Virus record (IMG/VR): IMGVR_UViG_3300033066_000386
Location: 25,758-89,757 of that record
DNA length: 64,000 bases
DNA from: a virus
Taxonomy: Duplodnaviria > Caudoviricetes
Strand: one strand, 5' to 3'
The translations under genes were made by a program, and so were the position numbers. Position 1 is the stretch's first letter; every line of letters starts with the position of its first letter. The notes beneath the pieces are model-generated. The model saw only the letters and a program-made list of their open reading frames with translations, made no database searches and was not told the DNA's origin. Below are positions 8,528 through 29,869 of this stretch, piece after piece.

Positions 8528-9112
8528 ATGTCACTGTTTCCGATCCCAACGTTTATTTGCACGGCTTGCAAAGAGCCTAAGGAAATTCGTTTCTTCAATC
8601 TTCGTAGAGACGGTAGGCCAACTACGCAATGCAAACTTTGTCAGAGAAAACGGTGTCGAGAAGCTACCCAGAGATACCGCAAAGGCAAACGTCCTGAAAT
8701 CGTCCCTGACCCTACTTCTCGAAAATTCACTTGCATACGCTGCAAGAAAACAATGGGCGAAGAATACTTCAACAAGAATGCCGCTCGTCATCGTGGCTGT
8801 GACAACCGCTGCAAAGAGTGTTCTTCCAAGGAGGTTTTCGATAGACGACTCAGATTCCAATTCGGCATCAGCGAAGATGACTACAATCGAATGCTGAAGA
8901 AACAGAAAAATCTGTGCTTCATTTGCCGAAAACCAGAATCAGCCGTTCATATGGGAAAGACTCCCAGGCTTAGCGTTGACCACTGCCACAAAACCAACAA
9001 GGTTCGTGGGCTACTCTGTTACGCTTGCAATCACTTAATTGGCTTTCTCGAACGTCACGGTAAGGTTCAGGTCGAGAAAGCTTGGAAGTATATTGCCGAG
9101 CATTCTAGTTAG
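8528..9112 (+). CDS. endonuclease VII-like homing endonuclease, antisense, between the two capsid genes
   Basis: QFGISEDDYNRML..Q...CFIC...LSVDHCHKTNKVRGLLCYACN motif; N-terminal CxxC repeats; SD aggag before ATG 8528. Confidence 0.85.
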   Translation: MSLFPIPTFICTACKEPKEIRFFNLRRDGRPTTQCKLCQRKRCREATQRYRKGKRPEIVPDPTSRKFTCIRCKKTMGEEYFNKNAARHRGCDNRCKECSSKEVFDRRLRFQFGISEDDYNRMLKKQKNLCFICRKPESAVHMGKTPRLSVDHCHKTNKVRGLLCYACNHLIGFLERHGKVQVEKAWKYIAEHSS

Positions 9113-10521
9113 TTCAGATAAACGAACGGGCTGACGGTCCATCCGTTGGCATCCTGGATCGAGTCATTGAGCCACGGGCGCCCATCGCAGCGGGTAATCA
9201 CACGCCAGCACAACTGGTTGTTCTGGAACTTGTACTGATTGCTCACGTCGATCTGCATTTCCATGCGGTTGCCGATGACGTACTTGGACCAATCCACCAA
9301 CATCACATCTCCCGCCGTTCCGAGCGTTGGCAATTTTTCCGTGAAGAAGATCGGCAAGCCATTCAAGAAGGCTTGCGGTAACTTCTGAGCCATCGGGCCA
9401 TTGACGCCCTGTTGGTACATGTTGGTCCAAACCAACTGATTGCCTGGAATGAATGTGGTAGTAGCCGTGTTGGCTACCGCACCCGATGCCATCTGGATCA
9501 ACTGAGGAATCACGCTTTGGTGCATGATCCAACAGGCGTCATCCCAAGAGCGAATCTGGAGATGGCTCAACATGGCTGCGGCGTCTGCCAAGGTGAAGCG
9601 GCTAGCCACGGTTCGGTTCTGAGCGATTGCTGCGGGGGCATTGAGAACACCGAGAGGCATGCTCGAACCCGCACCCAACCCACGAAGGAAGGCGTACTCT
9701 TTGTACCAGACGATGGCCTGGCCGAAGAGTTGAGTGAGGAGTGCATCCAAGCCCACACCGTTGTCCATCAATAGCTGATTGCTGGCAACCGTGAATAGCT
9801 GGAGGTTCCAGGCCGTCCACTCGCTTTGCTTGAAGGTCGGCTCCGTCTCGTTGATGAGTTGGGCTTCTGGTTGCCACGTGGCTTGCACGCCGCCGAAATA
9901 GGGGGACACACCGGATGCTTGAGCCGTGGTAATGTCCAACATCGGCCATTGTGCCGTGTAGGAGGTCATCGGAACCACTTTGGCCCGTTGTTCGATAAAG
10001 CCATCTTCCGCAGCGATGGTTAGAAGCTCGCTGATGAATTGAGGTGGCACGATGTAACCACCGGTGACACCGCTGCCTTCCGCTAAGGCTGCCTTGCGGA
10101 TTTCACCAGTGGCCTTATCCCGAACTCCACCTTGCTTGATGGCCTTGTGAACCGAGCAGAACTCGTGTTCTTTCTCGAAGCTATCGTCGTTGTAGTTGTC
10201 GTTCCACAGCCCTTGGCTTTTGGCCACTTCCATTGCGTTGCGATCACCGCTCAAGGCTGCGAGCTTGACCAAGGCGGGACCAGCACCGCATAGACGGGGC
10301 TTGCCGTTGTGCTTTTTCGCGAACATATCCGCCGCTGCCGCACTGCCGTAGCTTTTGGCGATGCGCTGCAAGCGATCATAGGTGCGCTGATTGAAGTCGC
10401 CCTTTTGGTCCCATGCGTCCTTCTCGGCGAACACCATATCGGGGGCATGCCGTGATGCCGGAGTGCTGGCCGCTTTCTGGAGTGCGGCTTCGATTTTGTC
10501 GAGTTGAGCTTTTGCGGACAT
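9109..10521 (-). CDS. HK97-fold major capsid protein, paralog 1 (with N-terminal delta/scaffold-like domain)
   Basis: ALAEGSGVTGGYIVPPQF...ETEPTF...GDVMLVDWSKYVIGNR...WRVITRCDGRP...SPFVYL. Confidence 0.92.
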   Translation of the reverse strand: MSAKAQLDKIEAALQKAASTPASRHAPDMVFAEKDAWDQKGDFNQRTYDRLQRIAKSYGSAAAADMFAKKHNGKPRLCGAGPALVKLAALSGDRNAMEVAKSQGLWNDNYNDDSFEKEHEFCSVHKAIKQGGVRDKATGEIRKAALAEGSGVTGGYIVPPQFISELLTIAAEDGFIEQRAKVVPMTSYTAQWPMLDITTAQASGVSPYFGGVQATWQPEAQLINETEPTFKQSEWTAWNLQLFTVASNQLLMDNGVGLDALLTQLFGQAIVWYKEYAFLRGLGAGSSMPLGVLNAPAAIAQNRTVASRFTLADAAAMLSHLQIRSWDDACWIMHQSVIPQLIQMASGAVANTATTTFIPGNQLVWTNMYQQGVNGPMAQKLPQAFLNGLPIFFTEKLPTLGTAGDVMLVDWSKYVIGNRMEMQIDVSNQYKFQNNQLCWRVITRCDGRPWLNDSIQDANGWTVSPFVYLN

Positions 10522-10613: not shown

Positions 10614-13600
10614 CTAAATGGCGAAACCGTAGTCCTTCAATCGATTGGTCAGTACCTTGAGGCGTTCCATGTCTTCCGGTGACAAGTCGTCGTCCTCGTC
10701 TTTTTCTTTGGTACACTTGCAATCGGACGACTTCTTTTTGCCCTTTCCTACATTGGCGAACATGGCCCGACATTCATCGTCCTGATCTTCACCCTCGCAG
10801 TCCTCACCGTAGATAATTTTTTCCTCTACAACTTCGCTAGAGGAATCCTTGGTTTCTTCCTCTTCCTCAAGGAACTCGGCCTCCTTGACCAACACCAGTT
10901 TGTTGCCCACTCGTTTGGCCGTGCCGACCTTGCGGGTGTACCACTTGAGGTTCTTCGGGTGCTGGTAGCGCTCCAGAATCTCCTCAGTGTCCTCATCGGG
11001 GTTGATGCCCACTTCCTCGTCGATGACATCTTCGTGTTCCGGCTCGGCTTCCTCTTGCTCCGCCCATTCCACGAGATCAAGGTCTTTGTCTTCGACCTCT
11101 TCGGAGATGTTGTCGTCTTCGAGGGATTTCTTTTCTTGGATGCCAGGATAGTTCTGTCTGAGCCAATGAAGAAGTTCGGTTACATTGGAGGCCCTTGCGG
11201 AGTCTATGATTTCCCCAGAGGCATCAAAGACTTCTACCAAAGGGGCTTTTGGGTCTTTCGTTAGCCTGAACTTCTCTCCCGATTTCCGCACCGACTTACG
11301 ACGCTTGCTCACCACCTCGTCTTCGGGTGGGATTTCACCGGCTTGAACCATGCCTTCCTCGCCGGGATCGGTCTCTGATCCACCCGTGCCGTCCGTCTCC
11401 ATGCCCTTCATGCACTTGTCAAGGAACTCATCGGGGTCGCCCTCACCCTTGGCGTGGTGGGTGTGCAACATGCCCTTGAGGTGTTCCATGCGGGGATCGA
11501 CGTACTTGGCCTTGTATTTGGTCAACCCCTCTTCAATGCCGGGGTGGTCGAGTTTGGAAATCTCGTCTTCGAGGAACTCCGCTTCGGCCTTGGCGTGCTG
11601 ATAGGTCTTGACGATGGATGCCGCCGATGGCTTGACCGTGAACGGCTCCTCCATCTCGATATCCTCGGCGATGAGATCGTGTGCATCGTCCTTCATGACC
11701 TGATCCTCTTCGTCCATGTCGGCTTTGCGTACCGGCTTGCTCTTGGCCACTGGTTGCTTGACCGGAGTTTTCTTTTTCATTGATTTGCCCCTTAGTTCAG
11801 AAGCAACCTTGTTGGCTTCCTGTAAAGTGTCGTAAAGCAACCCGTCTTTCGACGAAGCCACTCCCCCACCGTCCACAATTACCCTTCCGTCTGGTAGAAC
11901 GTTTTCCACGGTCTTGACCAGACCTCTCGTATCAACAATGAATTTCCCGTAGCCAGGTAGCTTGGGCTTGTCCATGAAATTGACGGCGACGACTTTCGTG
12001 GCTGGCTTAACGCTGTCAATGGAGATTGATTTCTTCTTTTTGTTGCCGCACGGACAATCGGGCTTGCCACCGCACTCGCAGGGGGGAACGGTGTAGCCAC
12101 CGCTGGCTCCGGAGGACTCGGCCAGGGATTTTTCGGCTCGTGAAAGGATCGCCTGCTGTAACTTAAGAGCTGCCCTGGAGGCTAGAGTACTTCCGTCGTC
12201 TGGGTCTCGACCCCTTACCCAAGATTGGTCAAAATAAATAGGTATAGTAACTACATCTCGTGAACCAACCGCTGCCCCAATCTCCATGTTTATTCCGGAT
12301 GGAACCCCACCAGCTCTTTGAACAGCCTTGTCTGCGATGTCATCCAAATCAGCATCAGTTAGTCTTCTTCCTTTGTAATTTGAGGGGATGGGTATGACTG
12401 CAACGATCCTACCCCCTAAAGATTTGTTAATCGACTTCCACACTTTTGGGTCATCCAGCCTATCCTTTGGCTCGGCCAGGGATTTTAGTTGTCTGTAGTT
12501 GTCGTTCTCGAAAAACCCTTTCGGGTCAACCATGAGCAGTATTCTTTCGCGAGTTGAATTACCCAACTTGATTGGTGTGTCCAACTGCACCGTTGCTTGC
12601 CCAAAGTTTCCACCGGCTGTATCGTTGTGAATCCCGGTGATACGTCCTTTGAAATCACTCTCCCCCAATCCTGGGACTGAGTAATGCCCTTCAACGTGCA
12701 TTCCTACTGACAACTTTTTCCCTTTAGTCACGGCTTTCGACTTGCACCCACAGTCCTTCTTGGCGGCTTTTGCTACTTCAATTTCGTCGCCATCGTATCT
12801 CTGAATTTCTCCGTCGTCCATTTCCACGATATATTGAGCCAATCTGCCTGAGCCGCGAACTTCCTCTATCTTTCCTTTGCCATGGCGACTCTGCACCCGA
12901 TCCCCGACCTTAAAGGAATAACCCCGGTCAAGACGAGAGTCCCCGCGAGGAGCGTTGTTTCTTAGTGAAGATTTCTTCACGGTGCAATCTCCGTTCGGAC
13001 ACCACCCCGACCACACAATTCCTTGTTCCTTGCGGCTCTTGGCGGCATAGGGCTTCAAGGCTTTTTGCAGTCTGGGAGTGATGAAGGATTTCTCTTTGTC
13101 GAGGCTGTCACGGATGGCCCCGGCGTTGGCGGGGACTCCGACGATGCTCGTTTCGGTGTGATCCCATGAATCGAATCGCCACCCCGAAGGACGGGTATCG
13201 CGTGGATTCGACTTGTACATCTCTTCCCGGCGTTGAGCGATGAGCGGGACGAATGCAATGCTCGTGGCGTTGAGAATTCCGCGCTGAACCTTCCCGAATA
13301 CGAACATCGCGTCGGGGTCGGCACGGTCGGGGTAGAAATTGGAGATGCACTTATCCCGCTGGGAAACCACCGCTATCGATCCATCAGGTGCGCGGCTCGT
13401 TCCAATGGGGATTTCCCATTCCTGATGGCCGAAGAACCACACGGGATTATTCGCGTAGTTTTTGCCTACTCGACCCATCGGCACGACGATATCTCCATCC
13501 CGATCCTCTTCCAGGGTGGTGATGATGAATTGGATATAGTCGTTGGTGGACCCGCTCAAGTTGGCCGATCCGCTCCGGCCCATGCCCAAAGCGGAGTTGC

Positions 13601-13742
13601 CCGAATGGTCCTTGTAGACGAATGCGTATTGTTCTTGCAATGACATGAAGTCCTTGACGGACACGTTGCCGTCCCTAATCGCTTTGGCGACTAGCGACTT
13701 TCGCGTCTCTACGTCTTTCAGGACTTTTAGGGTGTTACGCAT
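10614..13742 (-). CDS. HK97-type prohead protease with long multi-domain and acidic C-terminal extension
   Basis: ITTLEEDRDGDIVVP...NPVWFFGH...ATSIAF...ETSIVGVPAN protease motifs; start refined to ATG 13742 (SD agggg); 1043 aa. Confidence 0.85.
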   Translation of the reverse strand: MRNTLKVLKDVETRKSLVAKAIRDGNVSVKDFMSLQEQYAFVYKDHSGNSALGMGRSGSANLSGSTNDYIQFIITTLEEDRDGDIVVPMGRVGKNYANNPVWFFGHQEWEIPIGTSRAPDGSIAVVSQRDKCISNFYPDRADPDAMFVFGKVQRGILNATSIAFVPLIAQRREEMYKSNPRDTRPSGWRFDSWDHTETSIVGVPANAGAIRDSLDKEKSFITPRLQKALKPYAAKSRKEQGIVWSGWCPNGDCTVKKSSLRNNAPRGDSRLDRGYSFKVGDRVQSRHGKGKIEEVRGSGRLAQYIVEMDDGEIQRYDGDEIEVAKAAKKDCGCKSKAVTKGKKLSVGMHVEGHYSVPGLGESDFKGRITGIHNDTAGGNFGQATVQLDTPIKLGNSTRERILLMVDPKGFFENDNYRQLKSLAEPKDRLDDPKVWKSINKSLGGRIVAVIPIPSNYKGRRLTDADLDDIADKAVQRAGGVPSGINMEIGAAVGSRDVVTIPIYFDQSWVRGRDPDDGSTLASRAALKLQQAILSRAEKSLAESSGASGGYTVPPCECGGKPDCPCGNKKKKSISIDSVKPATKVVAVNFMDKPKLPGYGKFIVDTRGLVKTVENVLPDGRVIVDGGGVASSKDGLLYDTLQEANKVASELRGKSMKKKTPVKQPVAKSKPVRKADMDEEDQVMKDDAHDLIAEDIEMEEPFTVKPSAASIVKTYQHAKAEAEFLEDEISKLDHPGIEEGLTKYKAKYVDPRMEHLKGMLHTHHAKGEGDPDEFLDKCMKGMETDGTGGSETDPGEEGMVQAGEIPPEDEVVSKRRKSVRKSGEKFRLTKDPKAPLVEVFDASGEIIDSARASNVTELLHWLRQNYPGIQEKKSLEDDNISEEVEDKDLDLVEWAEQEEAEPEHEDVIDEEVGINPDEDTEEILERYQHPKNLKWYTRKVGTAKRVGNKLVLVKEAEFLEEEEETKDSSSEVVEEKIIYGEDCEGEDQDDECRAMFANVGKGKKKSSDCKCTKEKDEDDDLSPEDMERLKVLTNRLKDYGFAI

Positions 13743-13871
13743 ACCCCTAAAGCTAGCTAGGGGTACGGAGATAGTAAATCGGAAATGACTTAGGGGTGTG
13801 TAAGTGTAACTACTGGTTATCCACAAAACGAACGGCACGGAAAATATTTTGGAAAAATCTTTCGCTAGGGC

Positions 13872-13900
13872 TTGCACTTGGTGAATCAGGGGTGTATATT
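13872..13900 (+). promoter_or_regulatory. sigma70-type promoter P1 for plus-strand island
   Basis: TTGCAC-N17-TATATT with A/T-rich upstream tract. Confidence 0.7.
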
Positions 13901-16064: not shown

Positions 16065-16367
16065 TCACGAATTGTCGGGAACGTTGGTAGGTTCCACCAT
16101 CTCAACAGTTTGCCCAGACAGACTATGTTGGCAGTCTCCGCAATATTCGATTTTACCTCCACGAACGTGGTAGTGGCAGATCGTTTCTTCCGCGCGGTTT
16201 TCCCCTGCCGGGATGTAGTGCCTAACAGACGGCGACAACGTTGGGGATTCCTCATCACCATTCCAATGCCATCGCTCGGCAGGTACTCCGTGAAGATGTT
16301 TACAGCCTGGGCAGTGATACCAAACGTGCTGAACACCTTGATAATTTCTGACGGCTACCTTATTCAT
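16065..16367 (-). CDS. DUF6527-like Cys/His zinc-binding protein
   Basis: CPGCKHLH...WHWNGDEESPTLSPSV...CHYHVRGGKIEYCGDCQH. Confidence 0.65.
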   Translation of the reverse strand: MNKVAVRNYQGVQHVWYHCPGCKHLHGVPAERWHWNGDEESPTLSPSVRHYIPAGENRAEETICHYHVRGGKIEYCGDCQHSLSGQTVEMVEPTNVPDNS

Positions 16368-17140
16368 TCCATTTCCTCCGTCATCGAGCAGCTACAGTGA
16401 GGATGCCTCGGCGGACACATTACCCGTGCATAGGGGCCGGTTCCATCTACGACAAAAGGTTCGTTCAACCTCACCAATTTGCCCTCTAGTTCCGCGCACT
16501 TGGGGCAGCAGTCCCAACTACTAAGCCACCGCTTGTGCGTTGCCCCCGCCTCTTGTGCAGCATCGATTTGGCCCAGGTGGGTGAATCGGCTCGACTCCGT
16601 TTGTGCTATTGTAAACGCTCGGTTGGGGTTGGAGAATATCTCCCGTATCTTTTTTGCCAGGAGCTTGTGGGCTGCACCGGCTTCTAGACCCTCCCGCATC
16701 AGTTGGCGTAGGTTGACCATTGCCGTCTTGAGGTCCGTGGTTGCCGTCTCTAGCGTGGACCTAGCGAAGATGAAGGTGTGGTTGTCCACGGCGTCTAGTA
16801 TCTTCGGGTTGAATAGCTCGAAGTCCTCTTCGATGGTTGCTGCCTTGAAGATGGCACGTTGGAGCCGTTTCTTGGTTCCGAATGCCCTATCGGTGGGTAG
16901 GGTGTGGCTTGCGATACCCGTTTGTAGTCGCGCGAGTCTACTTGCTGCCTGCATGATGCCAGTCTGGTACTGATCCGTCATCACGGGCTTGATCGCTTCC
17001 ACAGTCACGCTCACCCACGGGGTCAAGTCGGGGACCGTCATCTTGTCCATGTCGATCCTCGACGCAACCTCTCTGGCCTGCAACGTGAATATGCGCTGAA
17101 GGATTCTTTGGAGCGTCAAGGCGTTGTTGCTTTTCTTCAT
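16364..17140 (-). CDS. MuF/gp7-like minor head morphogenesis protein
   Basis: RAFTIAQTESSR...KRWLSSWDCCPKC..LEG...PPRHPHCSC. Confidence 0.88.
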   Translation of the reverse strand: MKKSNNALTLQRILQRIFTLQAREVASRIDMDKMTVPDLTPWVSVTVEAIKPVMTDQYQTGIMQAASRLARLQTGIASHTLPTDRAFGTKKRLQRAIFKAATIEEDFELFNPKILDAVDNHTFIFARSTLETATTDLKTAMVNLRQLMREGLEAGAAHKLLAKKIREIFSNPNRAFTIAQTESSRFTHLGQIDAAQEAGATHKRWLSSWDCCPKCAELEGKLVRLNEPFVVDGTGPYARVMCPPRHPHCSCSMTEEME

Positions 17141-17162: not shown

Positions 17163-17633
17163 CTACGATTGCATTGCCACGATCATTTCCGATAGGGTGC
17201 GCACCTTCTCTTCGGCGTCCTCATCGTTCGGGTCGATGTTGTCGGCAATCAATTGAGCCACGGTGTCATCCAGTTTGGCTTGACGCTCTTCGGCATCCTT
17301 GCGAATGAGGCTTTTGTAGATCGGGGAGGACAATAGCCGCTTGTTCTTGGGAGGGGGCACTTCTTCATTCGGCTTGCCCACACCATAATAGGGCTTGTCC
17401 GTTTCCGGGTTTAGCTCGATCTCTCCACCCATCTTTTCTTTGACCAAGTTGGCTGCCAACCATCCCGGTCTGCCGTCCGATTCGCCGTATTCATACGCAG
17501 GGTAACTGGCCACTAAATTGGCCTCAACTGCTAACAGATTACCCAAGTCGCTTTCCTCATAAACAGTCCAAGTATTGTCGTCACCCAAAACGAGGGTGTC
17601 GTCACCTATTTCCACTTTGGCTAGCCATTTCAT
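17163..17633 (-). CDS. hypothetical head-module protein
   Basis: Start refined to ATG overlapping upstream stop (TAATG); carries SSPIYK motif. Confidence 0.6.
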   Translation of the reverse strand: MKWLAKVEIGDDTLVLGDDNTWTVYEESDLGNLLAVEANLVASYPAYEYGESDGRPGWLAANLVKEKMGGEIELNPETDKPYYGVGKPNEEVPPPKNKRLLSSPIYKSLIRKDAEERQAKLDDTVAQLIADNIDPNDEDAEEKVRTLSEMIVAMQS

Positions 17634-20062
17634 TACTTGATCTCCTGATTTTTGAGAAGAGAGCCGTCCAAAACCCCTAGCACGAACGAGCAATATTCAG
17701 GGTCTCGTTTGGCGAATCCCGATGGGTCTTTGTAAAGAAGCTCTACTCCCATAGAGAGTATCTCCGTCGCTGGAGCTTCAATCAGACCTGGTACACCGTA
17801 ATCTTTGCCGACGTAATAAGCTCTGATTTCGGCCTTCTTGTCGTTTGGATCGTCTGAAAACGCTTTGGCAAAATCATCTTTAGAGCCAATTTCGTTTTCA
17901 GAATATCCTCCACCAAACTTTTTCTTGAGAGATGTGGGTTCTTCGTCTTTTATGCGGTACTTCAGGAATTCCATACAGGCATCGTGTGCCCCCGGCATAT
18001 TGAACTCCACCCCATGAGACATTTCGTGGACAAATATATCAGTACCATCTTCTGGAGTGCAGTACACAGACTTAATTCCGTCCTTGTAATAAGCTCTGCC
18101 GTCGAACTCTGCGAATCTAATTTGAGGCATGTCCTTACCGCCAAGCCCTTTGGCCAGTACGTTGCTGAGGAACTCGTGTGCCTTGTTTGCTTTCTCCTTG
18201 TAGACCGGGCTAACAACGGTCTGACTAAACTTGATCGGTATCTTGGCTGGGTTATCAACCTTCAAGGTTTTTATCAACGCATCATGGTTGTCAGAATCCT
18301 GAGCCCTACTAGCCTTGACAGTCTCATCGTACAAGTTCTGAGACATTGAGGTAATCTCGTTAAGAATCTTCACACGCTTTGGATGACCGAACTTCAACTT
18401 ATCCGCTTCGGCCTTGGCACTAGATATTTTGTTCTTCAACTCCTCAATCTTTTTCTTTATGGCTTGCTTGCCGCTGCTAATTGACTCCAAGGATTTCAAC
18501 TTCTTCTTCAAAGACTCATTGCCAGCAATGCGCTCACCTATCGGGATAGGTTTGGCAAAAGCGTCTCGGATGTCTTCTTTTGTTATGTCATCAAATTGCG
18601 TAACATGGGGTTTTATGTCAGCAACTTCTCCCGTAGAACTGTAACTTCTGGTACTCAGCTTGCCCATCGATACCAGCTTATTGACGGCACGTTTCGCATC
18701 TTCAGCCGATATGCCTTTGGGCATTTTGGCAAGCAAGTCGTCCAGGGAGGTTTCTTTACCCTTTAAGTCGAATACCTCTGGATTAGGTAAGTCGTCGATT
18801 ATTGGTTCCGGTTCTACCTTCGGTTCAGGGTTTGGAGTTGGCTGCACCGGATCGGGCTTAACTTCAGGTTCCGGCTCTTCCTTGCCTTTCATCAACGTCA
18901 GTGCACCTTGAGCAATGGCATCCGCCCTCTTGGCCTTGGCGGGGTTGCCCTTAATGCTCAATCCCAGCTCGGCCTGAATCTTCTTGAGTTCTGGGATGGT
19001 GTGGCCGGATATTAGCCCTAGCAGCTTCTCCGGTGTGCCTTGGCCGGACTCCACCAAGTCCCTAATTTCCTTTACCGATTGCTCTACGGGCTTCTTGGCT
19101 GGCTTTTTGGACGCTGGCTTCTTTTTGCCCTCACCGAGAGCATTGCAGGGAACTCTCTTGCCATTCTGATAGCAGATGTTGTATCCGCGTGCATCGGTCT
19201 TCTTGCCGGTGAATCCGCCCTTGACCACGGTCTTGACTTGCTTGTAAATGGGGCTGGACCCTAATCCTTCGTCCTCCTCTTCGGGTGGAGCGTAGGGGGA
19301 GACGTCGTGTGCCCTTTTTAGGAATTTCTCGGATGCCTTCACGGTCGCTATACGAAAGTCGTCGTTTGCCGTCATCTTCATGTTGCGGACGGCATCGTTA
19401 AGGGCTTTCTCCAAATCCTTTGGGTCATCATCATTGGTAGTTGTGCGGGTGATGATGTAGTCGTCGAGAGCGTCTTTCACGATTTGGCACTTATCGACGA
19501 AATCGGAATATGCTTGATTCACCGATTCTTTAAACTCCTCTTCCGCCTCTCCAAACTCGGCATCGAAGCTTTCTATTTCCTCATCGCCATAAACGTCCTC
19601 TTCGGGCCGGAAGGATTCAATGAGGTGTTCCGTAACGTTCTCGACCATCGTGTTAGCGTAGAACTCGGCTTCTTCCGTGGCTTTCTGAACCAAGTCATTG
19701 GCGTCTGATTGGATGCTGGCTATGGCACTAGAGTCAAACGTTCCTTCATCATCGTCTACGGCATTCTCAACCTCACCCATGAGGTCCGCCAATCCATCCA
19801 CGCAATCAAACCCAGTTTGCTCAATTCCTTCGGCAGCTTTGTCGATTGACTTGGTTGCCGCTTCCGTTAGATGATCGCCCTGCGAGTTCTCCCCAACGAC
19901 GTGTTCGGAATCACTCTTGTCGTCATCTGGCTTGGCGGACTCCCCACCCTGACCGCTGGGCTTGCAATGGCCCTTGTCGTCCCTATCGCATTCCTCAAAA
20001 AAGGAACCCTTTTGGACGTACTTTTTGTCCCGGTAAATGGGGCTGGTCCAGAGCATTGTCAT
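17633..20062 (-). CDS. 809-aa putative internal head protein with C-terminal HExxH metallopeptidase-like domain
   Basis: CDRDDKGHCKP N-terminal motif, very acidic region, Pro/Glu linker, DIFVHEMSHGVE and TEILSMGVE zincin-like motifs. Confidence 0.6.
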   Translation of the reverse strand: MTMLWTSPIYRDKKYVQKGSFFEECDRDDKGHCKPSGQGGESAKPDDDKSDSEHVVGENSQGDHLTEAATKSIDKAAEGIEQTGFDCVDGLADLMGEVENAVDDDEGTFDSSAIASIQSDANDLVQKATEEAEFYANTMVENVTEHLIESFRPEEDVYGDEEIESFDAEFGEAEEEFKESVNQAYSDFVDKCQIVKDALDDYIITRTTTNDDDPKDLEKALNDAVRNMKMTANDDFRIATVKASEKFLKRAHDVSPYAPPEEEDEGLGSSPIYKQVKTVVKGGFTGKKTDARGYNICYQNGKRVPCNALGEGKKKPASKKPAKKPVEQSVKEIRDLVESGQGTPEKLLGLISGHTIPELKKIQAELGLSIKGNPAKAKRADAIAQGALTLMKGKEEPEPEVKPDPVQPTPNPEPKVEPEPIIDDLPNPEVFDLKGKETSLDDLLAKMPKGISAEDAKRAVNKLVSMGKLSTRSYSSTGEVADIKPHVTQFDDITKEDIRDAFAKPIPIGERIAGNESLKKKLKSLESISSGKQAIKKKIEELKNKISSAKAEADKLKFGHPKRVKILNEITSMSQNLYDETVKASRAQDSDNHDALIKTLKVDNPAKIPIKFSQTVVSPVYKEKANKAHEFLSNVLAKGLGGKDMPQIRFAEFDGRAYYKDGIKSVYCTPEDGTDIFVHEMSHGVEFNMPGAHDACMEFLKYRIKDEEPTSLKKKFGGGYSENEIGSKDDFAKAFSDDPNDKKAEIRAYYVGKDYGVPGLIEAPATEILSMGVELLYKDPSGFAKRDPEYCSFVLGVLDGSLLKNQEIK

Positions 20063-20089: not shown

Positions 20090-20314
20090 CTAGATACCGT
20101 CGAAGGCTAAAGCATCCTCTTCCGTCAAGTCCTCGTTGGTCCAATCCGGTGCGGTGGGTTGCTCGGCAAAGGCTTTATCGGCCTTGTCTAGCGCCTCTTG
20201 GCGGCTATGGGTCTCGTCGAGTGCCACGGCGAGCAACGCCATATACCAATCGGCATTGTCCCCGGCCTTCTGGACCCTAGCGCACACCTCTCGTGCATAT
20301 TCTTTGCTTGTCAT
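20090..20314 (-). CDS. hypothetical protein
   Basis: 74-aa ORF overlapping portal stop (ATGA). Confidence 0.55.
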   Translation of the reverse strand: MTSKEYAREVCARVQKAGDNADWYMALLAVALDETHSRQEALDKADKAFAEQPTAPDWTNEDLTEEDALAFDGI

Positions 20315-23300
20315 TTCTTGACCTTCTTTTTAGCGGGTTTACGTGCCGTCTTCCTTGATTTCTTGGGTTCTTCCTTCTTACCGGAGATCATCTTCTTGGC
20401 CGCTCGGATCGTTGCCATTGGGTTCCTTACCGTACTGTAGGCGATGTAGCCCAATGAGCAGGCTGGAATCCATGTCCCCACCTTAGCTGCGGCTACGTTG
20501 CCTCCCGTAGCGAGCAAGATGGCCGGGGCTTGGATCGTCCAGCCAACGGCTAGATCGGCGATTCCAACGGCCTTGCCAACCATCTTAGCATGCTCCTCGC
20601 CTAGCCCACGCTCAATGGCCACGGTCTCGGCCATCTCACGGGATTTGTTATAGCCGGTCATGAGCTTGTGTTCAACGAATCTTACCGCTCCGTAGGTTTT
20701 GACTAGCGCGGTTTGAACCGATTCGGGCAGCACGCTTCCACCGATCTCCCCAATGGTCAACATCGTTTCCTTCACATCGCTAAACTTCTCCGCTGCCGCC
20801 TTGAAGTTATCGACGATGGCCGTCTTGACCTTGGAGGAGCTGCCTGCACTCGTCTCCGTCGTCTTGGCCCCACCCTCTCCCGATAGGGGCGTGCATCCAG
20901 TCAAGTCTGCCCGCTCACCTGGCTTGCACGAACCTTCCGATTTAGTTTTTTGAGAAGACATGCTTGGTTCCCGCAAGATACCAATACCTTTCCCACCCTG
21001 ACTTGATTCTCGTACTTCTGGTAATCCCATGTGTTGTAGTCGCCCATCGACTGTGCGTGTGCCGCCACCACCGCTTGATAGGGTGTTAGAAGGTATTCCC
21101 TTTCTTTTAGCGTTGCTAGGTCGATTACTTTTACCAACATTGTTTCTCTCCCTCAATTTCTTGGACCAATCTTCGATCACGTTGAAAATCTCTGGGCTAT
21201 ACGATTTTAACTCATCTGGGGCCGTCACGTATGCCGCCGCTGCTTCCATGAGATTTTCTAGCTTACCGGCAATCCCCCCGTATACAGAGACGCTTTTTTT
21301 CAGCCCGGAGAGCTTTTCAGCATAGGATTTAGCTAAATCAGGATCGCTGCTGTAGGCGTGGTGAGCTACCTCATGGGCGGCAAAGTGCATTCCTTGGGTT
21401 ACGTTAGGTGATTTGAATAGGAATGCCGCTGGTGAATCTTTGTGTGCGTTTACCACGAACACTCCATCATGAGATGCGTCTCCACCGATGCCAAAGGAGG
21501 ATTTGCGCGAACCAAACTTCAGCTTTGGCATACCGATCCCAAACGTCTCCGCTGTTTTTTCGGCTGATTTTTTCGCGGACGCCACCAATTCCTCTCCACC
21601 ATCTTTCGGAACCCAAGCAGATATCTTTGAGTCTTCTGGGGGATTTTCTCGAATATTTTTGTCAACATCCTGAACCCACTTGGCTATATCGTCCTTCGTG
21701 CCAGACACCACTCCTTCGCTGCCGTCCCTACCCGTGTAGAACATATACCCGTCAATAAGTTGATACGATTGCACGGCTGGCGGAAATGAGTAGTCTGAAT
21801 CTACCGGTTCTACTTCGTATTTCCCCCCATTGACCATTACCGAACTACCAACTTTGGGTAGTTTCTGAATGTCCTTTCCTAGGGCTAAGTGAACTGCCTT
21901 ACCGCCGCTGCCGTTGATTGGGGTACATCCGGTGAGGTCCGCGCGTTCCCCAGGCTTGCATGATCCGCCATCGGCCTTACGGACGGCATACTTGGCAATG
22001 TACTTGAGGGAATTGCTGACCTTGAACGATTTGGTTTGGGTTGCACGTTGCAGGTGTTCCAAGTCGTCCAATAGTTCTGGACGAAGATTGTGGTTGTCGA
22101 AGTCCTTGGGTGATACCCACGCAACCACCTCAAATACGTCACCGTCCGGGTTCGTGTCCAATCGGCGGTTGACGATATCGACCGTATCCTCTGCCGCCAC
22201 TTGGTAGACGAATCCTTCGTACTTCCCATTCGTGCCACGCCAGTTATCGACAATCTTCCCATCCGGTAATTCGATACCCGTTTCCTCAAACCACTCTCGC
22301 TTGGCAGATTCAAGTGGATCGCCGTTGCCCTCAATCTTGCCTCCAGGGAATTCCCATGTGCCGCCCCGATGATCGTCGATATGGCGTTGGAGCATCAACA
22401 CCCTACCGGTATCCCTAGCGATGACTGCCAGCCCCGATGCAACCACGCTCTTGCGAACCAAGTTGTTTTTCTTGAGGTAGGCGTTGAGTTCCTTTTCCGT
22501 TGAGAATTCAATCGACTTATCGTACTTGTTGGGGAACACCTGTTGCCATTCCGGTCCTGGCTTGCCGCCCTCGTTTTGAACGATGACCCGCTGTTCATCT
22601 CCGGTCCACTTGGAAGCTTGGCTCTTGATGGCTAACTCAGTTTCTACGCCACCATCGAACCAATCCATGAAGTCAACGATGGCCAGTTTAGGAGGGCCTT
22701 GATTGACCCAAACGTAAAGCCCTTCCTTGTGTTCTTCGGGAAGAGCGTCTAGGTAGTTGCTGAGGTCTCCTACTGCTGCATCTGCCGTCGATTTAACAAT
22801 CGTCTTGGCGTCCTTGATCTTTTGATTTAGGCGATTCATTTCGATTATGTGTGCCCAACCTAGCAATTCGTTATCAGTCTTGCATACCGACTTGGCAGCA
22901 TTCCATTCCTTTGTATGGCTGATCGTCTTGAACCATTCATCCCAATGCTTGACCGATTTCGTAGGTTCTCCATTTGGTTCCTCTACTCCGGCGTCCATAT
23001 CCAGTGGCTTGGATTCGATGGCTAGCGGGTTGTCCGGTGCGGATTCTTCCCCACCTTCGGGCAGCTCCAAGGGTCCACCCTCCATAGCTTGCTGCTCGGC
23101 CTGTTCGGGTTGGGTGAACGGCTTGAGCAAATCGGCCAAGTCCTGTTGATCTTCTCCCGTGTTGAGTGGTAGCGGGACCATACCGCCTGGACCCGAAACC
23201 AATGGATCATCCCCACCATGCTCGTACCTAGGCCGACCTCTTAACGCGCGGACTTCGTTCGGAGTCACTGAATGGCATTGCATGTCGGTCGCCAAATCCG

Positions 23301-25659
23301 CGTTAACTTGGGCTGGATCGGCTGGAGTGCAATTGCCGGTGATGTGAACCTTGCCCCCACGCCGAACAACAAACTTCCCTGTCGGTACTTCAACGCACCA
23401 TACAAGCCCGCTATAGGGAATCGTGGAACGATGTTCCGGCTCCACCACGGCGTGCATTCTGGCACACAAGTTGACGGAGTAAATGTCGGAATGCCCTTTC
23501 TTGACCCCTACCTTTTTTACGATTGCCGCCGCTATACCGCACTTGATGGCAATTTCTTGAACATCGTCCGCGAGTTGTTTGCTGATCGTGAAGTATTTTG
23601 AATTCCACACTCCGGTGTTTTTGTTGATCTTGGGTTTGATGCCATCTCCAGCAATGAGGGCGTCTAACAATATGCGTAGGTATTCCGCTGGCCACGCCTT
23701 GACGTAGCTGGGGATTCGCATGTTTACCGACCCCTTGCCGCAATGCTCCTCAAGATGTTCGTACATGCCACGGTTGTTGCAAACAAATTGCATGGCCTTT
23801 TCGGTCTTTTGCCGCTTCTTCCAATTGCCCGGCATCCTGTCAATGCAAGCTTCCATCTTTGGGTAGCTAAGATTGTCGTTGTTTTGACTGATGTAAATCA
23901 GCCACGATCCGCCATATGGCTTGTTTCTTTGCAAGCATCCTTCGCTCAAGTAATAACCCATAAACTCTAGCCATAGCTTTGGCTCCATTTGCATCGGGTT
24001 GAGTAGGGTTTGTTGGTGTCCTCCACCATACTCTTTGACGGTTATATTGGTTGGGGTCTCGCATGCCGCTGGAGCAGCTTTGAGAATGTGATACGTGAGG
24101 CTTTCGGCCAAATCTTCGGCTAGCCGGAAACCCCATTGAGGAATTGCTCGACCCGATTTCGGCCTATCCTGCACCCACACGCGATGCCTAGGCGTCATTG
24201 CCACATTGATGCGACCACTTTCCCAGACATGGAGAACCCCTTCGTGTTGACGGCGGATGATTCGCTTCGGCTGGTGGTAAGAAAGCGTGTTTGTCACTTC
24301 GTCATAACAGGCGATTTCCGTACCGTAGGTGATGTCTTCTTGACGCTTCCACCCATCGGACGTTAGGCATTCTGTTTCTAGGTCCAAGCAGTCATCCCAC
24401 CACAATTTCGCCCTTTTTCCAGGTTGCGACCAGCGCGAAGCTAGATGTTTAGTCAACGTTTGACCGCGCATTTGTAAGCGAGGGTTAATACATTGGCTGC
24501 ACATGGATGCCAAAGTCGCCAACACGCTCCCAAACGTAAGGCCATCTGATATGCCTACGGCAGCCTTAGGAACTTGGAACAGCGACAAGATCATATCCCT
24601 AATTTGTTCCTCTGAGGAAAAATACGCCATCTCGGTAGGGGAAAAGCTTAACGGCGTGATCTTGGCTCCTGGCGGGGTGATGACGGGTTTGCCGTAGTTG
24701 CCCTCGCCCTGCATCCTGGACATGAACTTCGATTCGATACGGGCAATCATGTTGTCGTCAGGGTCTTCATAGCCTTGGGCTAGTTCCAGCCAAAACTCAG
24801 GGCGGGCTTGATTGATGAACTGTGCCCATCGTGAACGGCTGATGCTCTCTTCCGTATCAATCCATTGGCTACCCGCCGTTAGCTTGCTCCATCCGCCGAT
24901 CTTGTTCTGAGGACTCTTCCACCGCTCCATGATGATTTCATTGGGTGGGAACTTGAGTAGTCCCGATGCACCCGCTCCACCCCACGGACGCACTTCGTAA
25001 TATTCGATCAACTCCCCGGCATGGGGATGATCCGCGCTGACGTGCAATCCCCCACCCGTCCGTGGCCATACCCAGTGCGTGGGGATCACCCATAGCTCAC
25101 AGGGGGTTCCGTTGAGGGAATTGGGGACTGCCCAGATATAGCTGACTCCGCATAGCTCTTGGAACATCTGGCTTTCGTAGAGGATGTCAAAGGTGGTATC
25201 GACTGGGTTGGGGTTCTCTAGCAATCGGCGTAGAGGGTGATCGTTGCCCATCGGCTCAAGGTCGTCATGAGGCTTGATGACACTGAGGGCCTTGCTCCTC
25301 CACTCCCCCATCGTCAAATAGGAATGGCCTGCCCAATCCATCGTGCAACTACCGCCAAACCCCCTGCCCTTGGAGTTGAGCAGCCCTCGGTGCATCCCCT
25401 TCACGGTTAACCCCGGCTTCTCGGCGTCCACCACGTAGGCCAAATTCGGGAATAGGCCACCCATGCGGCAACATATGGCATTGACCGCCACGTAAGTCCA
25501 ATTGCGGAAGTGGGCCACCTGCTCGGCAACGTTCTGATCCCACCCATACGATGTGGTACGGTTGGGGAATAGGCTGGATATGACGCGCTCCCCAGGCGTG
25601 GCAACTTTTTGTATCGAATTGAATCGCTTGAGCTGGGGGAGGTACTTGGCACTTCTCAT
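20311..25659 (-). CDS. portal protein polyprotein (HK97-like portal + intein + NUDIX + HExxH + C-terminal hydrophobic/basic domain)
   Basis: LLENPNP...LCGVSYIW...ELWVIP...SEEQIRDMILSLFQVP...VTPNEVRALRG portal motifs; WEFPGGKIE...REWFEETG; HEVAH; 1782 aa with no stop. Confidence 0.85.
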   Translation of the reverse strand: MRSAKYLPQLKRFNSIQKVATPGERVISSLFPNRTTSYGWDQNVAEQVAHFRNWTYVAVNAICCRMGGLFPNLAYVVDAEKPGLTVKGMHRGLLNSKGRGFGGSCTMDWAGHSYLTMGEWRSKALSVIKPHDDLEPMGNDHPLRRLLENPNPVDTTFDILYESQMFQELCGVSYIWAVPNSLNGTPCELWVIPTHWVWPRTGGGLHVSADHPHAGELIEYYEVRPWGGAGASGLLKFPPNEIIMERWKSPQNKIGGWSKLTAGSQWIDTEESISRSRWAQFINQARPEFWLELAQGYEDPDDNMIARIESKFMSRMQGEGNYGKPVITPPGAKITPLSFSPTEMAYFSSEEQIRDMILSLFQVPKAAVGISDGLTFGSVLATLASMCSQCINPRLQMRGQTLTKHLASRWSQPGKRAKLWWDDCLDLETECLTSDGWKRQEDITYGTEIACYDEVTNTLSYHQPKRIIRRQHEGVLHVWESGRINVAMTPRHRVWVQDRPKSGRAIPQWGFRLAEDLAESLTYHILKAAPAACETPTNITVKEYGGGHQQTLLNPMQMEPKLWLEFMGYYLSEGCLQRNKPYGGSWLIYISQNNDNLSYPKMEACIDRMPGNWKKRQKTEKAMQFVCNNRGMYEHLEEHCGKGSVNMRIPSYVKAWPAEYLRILLDALIAGDGIKPKINKNTGVWNSKYFTISKQLADDVQEIAIKCGIAAAIVKKVGVKKGHSDIYSVNLCARMHAVVEPEHRSTIPYSGLVWCVEVPTGKFVVRRGGKVHITGNCTPADPAQVNADLATDMQCHSVTPNEVRALRGRPRYEHGGDDPLVSGPGGMVPLPLNTGEDQQDLADLLKPFTQPEQAEQQAMEGGPLELPEGGEESAPDNPLAIESKPLDMDAGVEEPNGEPTKSVKHWDEWFKTISHTKEWNAAKSVCKTDNELLGWAHIIEMNRLNQKIKDAKTIVKSTADAAVGDLSNYLDALPEEHKEGLYVWVNQGPPKLAIVDFMDWFDGGVETELAIKSQASKWTGDEQRVIVQNEGGKPGPEWQQVFPNKYDKSIEFSTEKELNAYLKKNNLVRKSVVASGLAVIARDTGRVLMLQRHIDDHRGGTWEFPGGKIEGNGDPLESAKREWFEETGIELPDGKIVDNWRGTNGKYEGFVYQVAAEDTVDIVNRRLDTNPDGDVFEVVAWVSPKDFDNHNLRPELLDDLEHLQRATQTKSFKVSNSLKYIAKYAVRKADGGSCKPGERADLTGCTPINGSGGKAVHLALGKDIQKLPKVGSSVMVNGGKYEVEPVDSDYSFPPAVQSYQLIDGYMFYTGRDGSEGVVSGTKDDIAKWVQDVDKNIRENPPEDSKISAWVPKDGGEELVASAKKSAEKTAETFGIGMPKLKFGSRKSSFGIGGDASHDGVFVVNAHKDSPAAFLFKSPNVTQGMHFAAHEVAHHAYSSDPDLAKSYAEKLSGLKKSVSVYGGIAGKLENLMEAAAAYVTAPDELKSYSPEIFNVIEDWSKKLRERNNVGKSNRPSNAKRKGIPSNTLSSGGGGTRTVDGRLQHMGLPEVRESSQGGKGIGILREPSMSSQKTKSEGSCKPGERADLTGCTPLSGEGGAKTTETSAGSSSKVKTAIVDNFKAAAEKFSDVKETMLTIGEIGGSVLPESVQTALVKTYGAVRFVEHKLMTGYNKSREMAETVAIERGLGEEHAKMVGKAVGIADLAVGWTIQAPAILLATGGNVAAAKVGTWIPACSLGYIAYSTVRNPMATIRAAKKMISGKKEEPKKSRKTARKPAKKKVKK
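20901..21140 (-). CDS. nested out-of-frame gene inside the portal ORF (phage hypothetical protein)
   Basis: 79-aa ORF with SD GAGGGAG; protein-like sequence YLLTPYQAVVAAHAQSMGDYNTWDY while the portal frame here is S/R/G/P-rich. Confidence 0.5.
   Translation of the reverse strand: MLVKVIDLATLKEREYLLTPYQAVVAAHAQSMGDYNTWDYQKYENQVRVGKVLVSCGNQACLLKKLNRKVRASQVSGQT
23332..24390 (-). mobile_element. intein with LAGLIDADG homing endonuclease in portal
   Basis: WWDD|CLDLETECLT...TPRHR...GYYLSEG...ALIAGDG...WCVEV...GKVHITGN|CTPAD; 353 aa; +1 Cys. Confidence 0.9.
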
Positions 25660-25789
25660 ATCTTCTATCCTTTTGGGAAGTCAATTTCCGAATTATTGTA
25701 ACTACCCACTCGGCAAAGGGATAGCCCACTTTTTGGCCATGTATAGTCGCGCGACTAAAAACTATTTTCAACTTTTTCTAAAATCCCCC

Positions 25790-27893: not shown

Positions 27894-28086
27894 TGGATTT
27901 CTCCGGTTCGTACCGTTGGCAAACTCTCACTCGTCGCATCATCACTCTATAGGTGTGGCAGTCATGTGCCTCAAAGAATCTATCGCATAGACCGTTAATG
28001 ACTGATAAATGCAACAACATTCTTCTTGTCTCGATATCATCGCATTCCAACAAATCCATGTAGTTTTGCATGTAGTAATCGAGCAT
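27883..28086 (-). CDS. hypothetical protein
   Basis: Start overlaps upstream stop (TAATG). Confidence 0.5.
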   Translation of the reverse strand: MLDYYMQNYMDLLECDDIETRRMLLHLSVINGLCDRFFEAHDCHTYRVMMRRVRVCQRYEPEKSNER

Positions 28087-29720
28087 TACACTTCCTTCGG
28101 CAATAGGATTTGTTGGTCGTGCTTGCATTCGATTTCGATGACGGCGGGGTCGGTATATTTAAGTACTCGTTCAAGTTCAGATATGTTTTCTCTGGTTAAG
28201 CGACTGTGTATGACAATTCCCATTGCTTCGGCTACGTCTGAAATGTCTGGTATGGCCACATCATCGCCGCTACCTATCCTCCTGCCCTCACAGTATCGGT
28301 CTTGGGTATTACGAATGGACGCATAGCCACCGTTGCTGATGACGATGATCTTGACGTTGAGTTCTAGTCGCGCGAGTACGCTTAGCTCCTGCACGTTGGT
28401 CATGAAGCTACCATCCCCGATAACGGCAACCACCGGCACATTCGGATTGGCCAGGGCTGCTCCGATGGACGCTGGCAATGCCCACCCCATTTGGGCCAAT
28501 GATCCAGGGCAGATGAATCTTCGGTTGCCCATCATCTGCATGACCTGAGGAATGGCGTAGTAGGGCTGCCCGGCATCGTAAAGGATAATGGCGTCTTGGG
28601 ATATCTCGTCGTTCAAAGCGGATAAGGCTTCGTACAGGTCTAGCGGTCCATCTTCGTTGTCTACGATATACTCTTGGCTATGTTGGTGGTAGGCGTCTCC
28701 ACATGCCCTATGCCAATCGCTTCCCTCATGGGTAAATTCCAGCTTGAGCTTAACCAGCTTTCTAAGGAACTCGCCCACGTCGCACTCGAACTTCAAGCCG
28801 CCGTGATCCACCTTGTCCAGTACGGCGCGGTCCGGGTCCACATGGATGATCGTGGCGTTCTTGGGCAGGTACTCGCCATCCCATCCGATGGTTTGGTTGT
28901 GTAGGCTACAGCCCATGACGAGGACCACATCGGCATTCTTGAGCATCCAGTTCGCTGCGGTATGACCCTTCACTCCTGGGTGGCCATAGCTGTATCGGAT
29001 GGCATCTTTGGCGAATTGGGTGGTGATGATCGGGATGGTGCAGGACTCGTCTAGCTGGCGTGCCGCCTCAATCGCTCCAGAACAGCGTATGCCGTGTCCA
29101 AATAGGATCAACGGGCGTCTAGCCTCCTTGAGCAGTTTGGATGCCTGCAAGGGCCATTCTGGATTGATTTTAACCCGTTCTAGGGCCGGATTTAGTGGCT
29201 CTTTAGGAATCGGCAGCTTGTCTTGGCTGATTTCGCTGCTTTGAAAGTCGAGGGGGACTTCCAAATAGACCGGCCCCGGCCTTCCCGACACGCATTCCAT
29301 CCATGAGCCTTCGATGCAGATAATGCCGTGATCCTTGGTGAAGGCCGAGACGATGGGGAACGTATCTACTTCAAGAAACCCCGTTTGTCTCAATCTAGTT
29401 CCATTATTGCAATCCTTGACCTTGCTTTGACCCACGATGTAGATGACGGGGATGGAGTCTTGGTACGCGCTGACGATTCCCGTAATGAGGTTGGGTCCAC
29501 CTGGTCCACCCGTGGCAAGGCATAGGCTGGGTCTGCCCGTTATCCGAGCGTAGGCATCGGCAGCATAGGCTGCGGCTTGCTCATGGTGGAAGCAGGTGTA
29601 CCCCATGCCGCTCTTCTTAACCGCGTCCATCAAGTACATCATCTGCCCACCCGATACCAGGAAGGCGTGGTCAATGCCCTGGGCTTGCAGGAATTGGATG
29701 AGGTAGTCAGCTACGATCAT
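28086..29720 (-). CDS. thiamine-diphosphate-dependent enzyme (acetolactate-synthase fold, YerE-like)
   Basis: MIVADYL...HHEQAAAYAADAYAR...TGGPGGPN...RPGPVYLEVPLD...MGWALPASIGA...GDGSFMTN...NGGY; SD aggag at 29720; frame stays open to 29855. Confidence 0.9.
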   Translation of the reverse strand: MIVADYLIQFLQAQGIDHAFLVSGGQMMYLMDAVKKSGMGYTCFHHEQAAAYAADAYARITGRPSLCLATGGPGGPNLITGIVSAYQDSIPVIYIVGQSKVKDCNNGTRLRQTGFLEVDTFPIVSAFTKDHGIICIEGSWMECVSGRPGPVYLEVPLDFQSSEISQDKLPIPKEPLNPALERVKINPEWPLQASKLLKEARRPLILFGHGIRCSGAIEAARQLDESCTIPIITTQFAKDAIRYSYGHPGVKGHTAANWMLKNADVVLVMGCSLHNQTIGWDGEYLPKNATIIHVDPDRAVLDKVDHGGLKFECDVGEFLRKLVKLKLEFTHEGSDWHRACGDAYHQHSQEYIVDNEDGPLDLYEALSALNDEISQDAIILYDAGQPYYAIPQVMQMMGNRRFICPGSLAQMGWALPASIGAALANPNVPVVAVIGDGSFMTNVQELSVLARLELNVKIIVISNGGYASIRNTQDRYCEGRRIGSGDDVAIPDISDVAEAMGIVIHSRLTRENISELERVLKYTDPAVIEIECKHDQQILLPKEV

Positions 29721-29869
29721 GGTTGCTCCTTTTCGTATTTGAGGGAGAACGCTAGCAACTCTTCGAGCGTGGGGGCCGCGATCTTCGTCATAACGATTGC
29801 CGCACCTCTCACACACGTCATCCTCAAGGTGATATCCACATTCACATGTAAGCATTGAATTACTCCTAG

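Follow-up and report, generated by a model that had tools for sequence, protein, structure and literature searches.

A phage portal gene with an intein and a NUDIX-metallopeptidase extension, probably encoding a portal-anchored polyvalent effector protein

Why should a phage portal gene run to 1782 codons, and what becomes of the part of its product that does not belong to the portal? This question is raised by a locus in a stretch of 64,000 nucleotides (hereafter the window; positions 25,758 to 89,757 of record IMGVR_UViG_3300033066_000386, Duplodnaviria, Caudoviricetes), which originates from an IMG/VR virus genome of 89,757 bp rated complete by CheckV. An initial annotation, made from the letters of the window alone, had described the gene product as a portal polyprotein with about 950 aa of enzymatic cargo. 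After our analysis, the gene is probably to be understood as the single portal gene of this phage, built as a portal-anchored polyvalent effector protein that contains an intein and releases a cargo delivered at infection. Phage polyvalent proteins with portal or MuF anchors have been defined previously (Iyer, Burroughs, Anand, de Souza, Aravind 2017, PMC5512222) by at least two unrelated effector domains and a virion anchor in a terminase-portal phage, and in the window portal, NUDIX, metallopeptidase (MPTase) and tail modules were found in one open reading frame (ORF). The protein is a further example of this published group, and portal-Nudix fusions and portal inteins are already known as well; less ordinary are a two-Cys junction motif between its modules and a possible nested gene in a linker. 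The ORF is as follows:

Window 20311..25659, minus strand: whole ORF P0001, 1782 codons plus stop; likewise uninterrupted in the genome record.

The frame contained no internal stop, so the single giant ORF of the initial annotation was borne out, and the relatives checked for splitting stops likewise revealed continuous ORFs. Separate genes fused through stop codons lost in assembly or sequencing would be the simplest alternative, and we found no supporting point for it. A search of 5.8 billion proteins yielded continuous portal-NUDIX proteins from independent assemblies, namely P0002, P0003, P0004, P0006 (an NCBI entry), P0007, and P0008, of which P0002, P0003, P0004, and P0006 share the continuous ORF from portal through NUDIX to tail; at least five independent assemblies have a continuous ORF. 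Synonymous and non-synonymous substitutions were counted in the portal frame between the window and two close relatives (for the portal C-end against L005) and amounted to 40:17 for the portal C-end, 32:15 for residues 902-1070, 28:5 for the NUDIX domain, 54:9 for the peptidase, and 32:14 for the tail, as compared with about 1:10 in the other frames with the same relatives, so that in-frame selection extends across every junction. Given the purifying selection on its own frame and its conservation as one ORF in independent assemblies, the ORF is genuine and not an artefact, an explanation that we consider exceedingly improbable. Among the relatives, P0002 (1446 aa) revealed 92-96% identity to the window protein across the common cargo in BLASTP analysis, and P0003 (1026 aa) is encoded on an 89.8-kb contig (L002) syntenic with the window and sharing the gene order thiamine-diphosphate (ThDP) enzyme, portal, large head protein, MuF, giant protein, and capsid. 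A search of IMG/VR with single-sequence peptide patterns resulted in no close relative, and megablast against GenBank phages gave no match.

The N-terminal half of the ORF revealed a portal interrupted by an insertion:

Window 24391..25659, minus strand: portal N-extein, residues 1-423, HK97-family (PF04860); Pfam match, PHROG portal families, 58-65% identity to relatives.
Window 23332..24390, minus strand: class-1-type intein with LAGLIDADG homing endonuclease, C424-N776, followed by +1 C777; intein-less relatives, catalytic residues, Pfam, tblastn, PI-PkoII.
Window 22957..23331, minus strand: portal C-extein, residues 777-901; profile end at TPNEVRALRG, acidic stretch, and conserved PNGxPxK; invariant columns in alignment A1.

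The Pfam profile Phage_portal matched residues 139-419 (E 4.4e-29, 102.1 bits against a cut-off of 39.1; profile positions 33-285 of 321), and PHROGs and NCBIfam were concordant with the Pfam calls on the ORF. In P0003, P0006, and P0015, the profile was extended to its last position (321/321) via the stretch homologous to that following the intein. Only one portal match was obtained in the 89.8-kb record, with a MuF gene and two HK97-fold capsid genes downstream and synteny with L002. The motif TPNEVRALRG, at which the initial annotation had let the portal core end, was located at residue 799 (window ~23236-23265) and could be kept as a landmark, but the core itself cannot comprise about 830 aa, since residues 424-776 are an intein that was overlooked when the core was read as one block.

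Three relatives without intein (P0003, P0006, and P0015) define the insertion site, as in alignment A1 their WWDDC runs directly into APADPAQVN. Excision of residues 424-776 from the window protein would restore WWDD-CTPADPAQVN, the counterpart in P0015 being WWDDCAPADPAQVN. The class 1 intein residues C424, block B T489-P-R-H492, N776, and +1 C777 were all present, as were the two LAGLIDADG motifs, including E573 and D672 as acidic residues; LAGLIDADG_3 (PF14528) was detected at residues 660-735 (27.1 bits against a cut-off of 22.5), and the endonuclease part was similar to the solved intein endonuclease PI-PkoII. In tblastn analysis against GenBank phages, matches were restricted to residues ~344-790, the clearest covering ~424-780, and all of them lay in genes known for inteins, namely terminases, nucleotidyltransferases, and a DNA polymerase. 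Based on these features, the portal precursor is predicted to undergo splicing, which would remove 353 aa and leave a protein of 1429 aa, consisting of a portal of ordinary size (~1-423 plus 777-901) and about 880 aa of C-terminal cargo.

The inteins of close homologues occupy other positions: in P0002, a homologous intein sharing 35.5% identity follows AYFS and has a +1 Ser, and P0004 harbored a third insertion just before HAITPNE. As three different insertion sites occur among close portal homologues, this portal gene lineage is a hot spot for inteins and mobile elements. An HNH_3 endonuclease gene overlapping the portal start was also observed in L005 (7427-8014). Portal proteins of mycobacteriophages harbor inteins too (Kelley et al. 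2016, PMC5050341; bioRxiv 10.1101/2025.01.02.630785), which are likewise LAGLIDADG inteins in the portal gene, polyphyletic, and found at several insertion sites; the intein described here differs in portal lineage and site, in the three sites among close relatives, and in its penultimate Gly.

Behind the portal, the cargo begins with two regions preceding the peptidase module:

Window 22450..22956, minus strand: conserved region, residues 902-1070; partly common to P0015, selection 32:15.
Window 22030..22449, minus strand: NUDIX hydrolase domain, residues ~1071-1210; PF00293, Nudix box 1107-1129.
Window 21148..21891, minus strand: zincin-like MPTase module, residues 1257-1504; beta-rich N-terminal subdomain and catalytic domain.

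For residues 902-1070, no recognizable fold and no Pfam or Atlas match was obtained. The NUDIX domain, noted initially at about 22050-22445, was confirmed by Pfam PF00293 at residues 1078-1192 (window 22084-22428; E 1.3e-16, 61.3 bits against a cut-off of 21.1), and the RExxEE part of its Nudix box, for which the consensus reads Gx5Ex7REUxEExGU, is intact (G1107, R1121, E1122, E1125, E1126, and G1128 present). The nearest solved relatives by sequence were the Bdellovibrio pyrophosphohydrolase BdRppH (3ees), NudG, and MutT, so that a MutT/RppH-like hydrolase is predicted. Degradation of a host-defence signal, as suggested earlier, is possible, with nothing here that favors this role.

The HEVAH domain, previously placed at about 21250-21500 and described as zincin-like, was found as such, with the motif at residues 1429-1433 (near window 21375). 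A search with residues 1231-1603 against 1.84 billion representatives resulted in 78 clusters (E<=1e-3), of which 57 reached E<=1e-10; among the relatives, independent proteins of about 250 aa and modules within giant multidomain proteins were both frequent, and H1429, E1430, H1433, E1468, and N1404 were invariant in the 25 members of alignment A2. Single-sequence and profile searches of the module against the PDB gave chance-level matches only. An AlphaFold2 (AF2) model of the module reached a mean predicted local distance difference test (pLDDT) of 92.9, and exhaustive structural comparison with VIA-align returned the catalytic domain of anthrax lethal factor (LF), the Pro-Pro endopeptidases (PPEP) PPEP-2/-3, and Certhrax at the top (Z 8.6-9.4), followed by mostly other zincins; the best LF/PPEP superpositions had Z values of 9.4, 9.4, and 8.7 over 139-152 residues at a root-mean-square deviation of 3.6-4.2 A. 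Foldseek matches were weak (E >= 0.047), the leading ones being almost all zincins or LF-like domains. As judged from the model, the module has a zincin fold with an HExxH...E zinc site and is a predicted metallopeptidase. With LF and the PPEPs (MEROPS M34) it shares the catalytic-domain fold and the zinc site, but at 12-16% identity and with a different N-terminal beta subdomain, and the Pfam family ATLF did not match P0001, so that the likeness appears to be one of fold rather than of family membership. No other domain has been described as being so frequent in polyvalent proteins as the zincin MPTase, which was united with lethal factor and suggested to process the proteins that contain it (PMC5512222); the HExxH module of the window is this MPTase of Iyer et al. 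2017.

The cargo ends with a further module:

Window 20314..20850, minus strand: C-terminal tail module, residues 1604-1782; predicted helices, a hydrophobic pair of segments at ~1697-1745, and a Lys-rich end.

This tail is conserved in P0002, P0003, P0017, and P0093, with 50 invariant columns that include a 38%-identical homologue, and is strongly basic (17% Lys + Arg, the last 30 residues being Lys-rich). Of the hydrophobic, Lys-rich tail reported initially, the Lys-rich end stood, and the hydropathy profile revealed only moderate hydrophobicity (1697-1718). Atlas scores of at most 0.79 were at noise level, and a homologue search yielded two short homologues only. In an unrelated IMG/VR protein (L007:3-1952, plus strand), two junction motifs of the type described below are followed by strongly hydrophobic segments and then an Arg-rich end. 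Because this order of motif, hydrophobic segments, and basic end parallels that of the window protein, there are hints that the tail is a membrane-active or DNA-binding terminal module.

From this architecture and the literature, we infer that the cargo is cleaved, packaged, and ejected. Translation would yield the 1782-aa precursor, from which the 353-aa LAGLIDADG intein would excise itself, leaving an HK97-family portal with about 880 aa at its C terminus on the interior side of the capsid. Twelve such chains at the portal vertex would, from what is known of portal biology, place the cargo in every head without a separate targeting signal. Proteolysis at linker sites would then detach the cargo from the portal and divide it into its modules, most likely through the embedded LF/PPEP-like zinc metallopeptidase and/or an HExxH protein encoded next door, with the two-Cys junction motifs marking the module boundaries. 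Finally, the freed NUDIX, peptidase, and hydrophobic basic tail would exit with the DNA and act early in the new host, as proposed by Iyer et al. The claim that the portal serves as an effector carrier fits the finding that portals of relatives are joined to other effector modules, namely 2H phosphoesterase, ADP-ribosyltransferase (ART), C39 peptidase, and MuF; its packaging and injection part is a proposal from the literature, in which Nudix, 2H, and ART domains joined to portal or MuF proteins are regarded as packaged and injected (PMC5512222; PMC9503650, section 3.5.2). A cargo on the portal is also less unusual than was implied when it was said to be better known on MuF proteins.

Two alternatives concern the place where the cargo works. 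According to the first, the extension would stay on the portal as an internal core or DNA-organizing body, the Lys-rich tails binding DNA and the enzymes not being delivered. The strongly basic and conserved tail would agree with this, and the virion RNA polymerase of phage N4 is packaged unprocessed despite its MPTase (PMC5512222). However, the catalytically intact NUDIX and peptidase have no obvious substrate in a capsid and the modules are exchanged among relatives like effectors, so that we regard such an internal body as quite improbable. According to the second, the cargo would function late in the producing cell, the portal fusion providing late co-expression, after which the cargo would be cut off and left behind. 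Detachment before assembly by the embedded peptidase would be feasible, as proposed for DdrB of phage P1 (PMC5512222), but the same types of cargo on two head anchors, portal and MuF, in many lineages are better explained by packaging, and we hold a role in the producing cell to be highly improbable. Delivery into the new host remains our preferred reading.

How the cargo would be released was assessed from its sequence and from the peptidases encoded in the genome. Initially, the modules had been described as separated by xxK|S/A motifs and cut by the prohead protease, i.e., a serine protease of capsid maturation. Lys-Ser (KS) was indeed over-represented in the cargo (17 observed against 6.8 +/- 2.4 expected; 0/2000 shuffles reached 17) and in a 1087-aa head protein (17 against 7.0 expected), though not in most other proteins, and K901 in PNGxPxK at the portal-cargo border is invariant. 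As background, cleavage after Lys is known for the HK97 capsid protein, and head proteases trim the portals of Mu, lambda, and P2, which also counts in favor of a prohead protease. Against it, Lys-Ala (4 against 8.1 expected) and Lys-Gly (2 against 9.2 expected) were depleted instead of enriched, many of the cargo KS were located within folded domains, with 6 of the 17 in that of the peptidase, and the residue following K901 is S, G, or D among relatives. Moreover, the prohead-protease families S78 and ClpP found no match in the 89.8-kb genome, and the S77 search, which matched no control genome, was uninformative. Of the proposed boundary rule, only the excess of KS was retained, the conserved element at the boundaries being the two-Cys motif. 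As no such protease was detected, release by a prohead protease is unsupported, and we consider it rather unlikely.

The identifiable peptidases of the head module are zincins, one in the cargo and one candidate in the next gene:

Window 17633..20062, minus strand: next gene after the portal, 809-aa head-module protein; internal N-module repeat and C-terminal HEMSH domain, candidate second zincin in trans.

In the 809-aa protein, residues 3-38 resemble residues 267-400, and the repeated N-module carries two-Cys stretches of its own. Its C-terminal domain shares an invariant HExxH and a downstream Glu with relatives, and this domain is exchanged among relatives, the L004 counterpart having a Pfam ATLF match. 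Its similarity to zincins was weak (hhalign 32% probability, Pfam M4 E 0.22); the neighbor may be a second zincin acting in trans. Altogether, cleavage by a zincin appears more likely than cleavage by a prohead protease.

The boundaries of the peptidase module are formed by a repeated peptide:

Window 21901..21966, minus strand: junction motif copy 1, residues 1232-1253; C1234 to C1245, then xxGxGG.
Window 20869..20934, minus strand: junction motif copy 2, residues 1576-1597; C1578 to C1589.

This motif of 22 aa consists of the core CKPGERADLTGC (C-K-P-G-E-R-A-D-L-T-G-C) followed by T-P-x-x-G-x-G-G, and its two copies in the window protein flank the peptidase module together with a low-complexity linker. 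P0002 and P0003 possessed one copy each and lacked residues 1254-1575, with the breakpoints inside the motif. Since the single copy of P0002 joins the upstream flank of copy 1 to the downstream flank of copy 2, the peptidase is a mobile cassette gained or lost through recombination within the junction motif. At the DNA level, the two copies were identical in 44 of 93 bases and differed mostly at wobble positions, which argues that the peptide is the conserved and selected entity. A recent DNA duplication was considered and rejected, as a repeat search did not report the copies and in view of the same identity and wobble differences.

Of 91 fetched proteins, 23 contained the motif, each with 1-3 copies that invariably separated Pfam domains; the adjoining domains comprised ART, 2H/Acb1-like, topoisomerase IB, ATLF, ParB, MuF, and a polyvalent-type kinase. 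Lambda-family portals carry the motif as well, and in L013 (1424-5035, plus strand) a NUDIX domain is flanked by two copies, which parallels the window protein on a different portal family. The motif is rare, as in IMG/VR the exact pattern resulted in 0 loci and a relaxed pattern in 2; in JGI/ENA metagenomes, 9 loci were found, several of them from Hainich ('Hain') assemblies. As a strict rule, a private substrate site of this peptidase clade was rejected, the two rarely co-occurring (2 proteins). Because motif and clade mostly occur apart, the motif is rather a general junction element, shared with other phage polyvalent proteins. A literature search for the motif peptide gave nothing relevant, and the main text of PMC5512222 does not contain the word 'cysteine' (0 occurrences); the motif is apparently undescribed, its novelty being not certain.

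Between the peptidase domain and copy 2, a second reading frame was noticed:

Window 20935..21147, minus strand: low-complexity linker, residues 1505-1575; kept in the closest relative only, overlaps the nested ORF in another frame.
Window 20901..21140, minus strand: nested 79-codon ORF in the +1 frame of the linker; possible overlapping gene, substitution pattern against L004.

The nested ORF is also open in the close relative L004, with 8 substitutions in 240 nt (3.3%) as compared to 8.5% in the peptidase domain. Of these 8 substitutions, 5 were synonymous and 3 non-synonymous when read in the nested frame, as compared to 2 and 6 in the portal frame, a pattern from one comparison that fits dual coding. 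No homologue of the nested ORF was found among called proteins. Taking motif and linker together, a tentative and somewhat doubtful proposal would be that the motif of about 20 aa (G-[ST]-C-K-P-G-E-R-[AS]-D-L-T-G-C-T-P-x-S-G-E) is a dedicated junction signal of virion-packaged polyvalent proteins, serving both as an excision or clasp site at the protein level and as a cassette-exchange joint between phages of unrelated portal families, with the linker encoding a second protein in another frame.

Regarding the remainder of the head module, the following gene was assigned:

Window 16364..17140, minus strand: separate MuF (SPP1 gp7-like) head protein, 258 aa; Pfam Phage_Mu_F 45.1 bits.

It matched the C-terminal part of PHROG 2662, a portal-MuF fusion family whose N-terminal half matches the portal, so that portal and MuF are fused in some phages and split by about 3 kb here. 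A relative from Streptomyces containing NUDIX and MuF (P0011) is named 'phage portal protein' at NCBI. Two major capsid paralogues of HK97 fold are encoded in one head module (window 9109-10521 and 7311-8417, minus strand; Phage_capsid E 1e-33 and 1.9e-26). The 1087-aa protein (window 10614-13877, minus strand) lies upstream of these capsid genes; its similarity to head proteins was limited to a weak PHROG match at the N terminus. Upstream of the portal, a 589-aa ThDP enzyme (window 28086-29855, minus strand) displayed all three TPP domains and is not a terminase; its gene position is kept in L002 and L005.

Several observations weigh against the explanation set out above. The penultimate His of the intein is absent and replaced by G775, which bears on splicing efficiency; the related intein of P0002 likewise ends in GN, and among active inteins a penultimate His is not universal. 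In the NUDIX domain, the first Glu of the Nudix box is replaced by Gly1113 (Thr in P0003, Glu in P0006). The hydrophobicity of the tail is borderline for a membrane segment (maximum 1.55), and its AF2 model was unusable (pLDDT 42.8). The motif was found alone in 21 proteins, the peptidase clade alone in 58, and both in 2. A maturation protease or scaffold may be hidden in the 1087-aa protein, and a protease there would count against release by a zincin. Finally, cleavage, packaging, and ejection are themselves deduced from architecture and literature.

In comparison with the polyvalent proteins of Iyer et al. 2017 (PMC5512222), the window protein agrees in combining unrelated enzymatic modules with a virion anchor, in its zincin MPTase unified with LF, in belonging to a terminase-portal phage, and in its location in the head module; it differs in the intein within the anchor, in the two-Cys motif flanking its modules, and in the separate MuF gene. 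Portal/MuF-Nudix fusions (Iyer et al. 2022, PMC9503650, section 3.5.2) similarly combine a portal with a Nudix at the C-terminal side, for which packaging and injection were predicted; these were assigned to a T4 NudE-like clade, whereas the nearest solved sequences here were BdRppH, NudG, and MutT. MuF polymorphic toxins (Jamet et al. 2017, PMC5576092), T4 Alt, and internal proteins resemble it in that a head-protein anchor or targeting sequence brings effectors into the head and in their swappable C-terminal modules, but in contrast to MuF toxins and T4 Alt the portal itself serves as anchor here, so that the number would be fixed at 12 copies per virion.

For annotation, our results imply that the length of a very long 'portal' ORF should be interpreted only after a check for inteins. 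Portal-anchored effectors have been predicted in the literature, and our literature search found no experimental study of them. With its dose fixed by the anchor at 12 copies per virion, the protein would offer a clean system for studying packaging, release, and early action of a NUDIX delivered from the head, and the junction motif provides a concrete, mutable candidate for a processing or exchange signal of polyvalent proteins generally.

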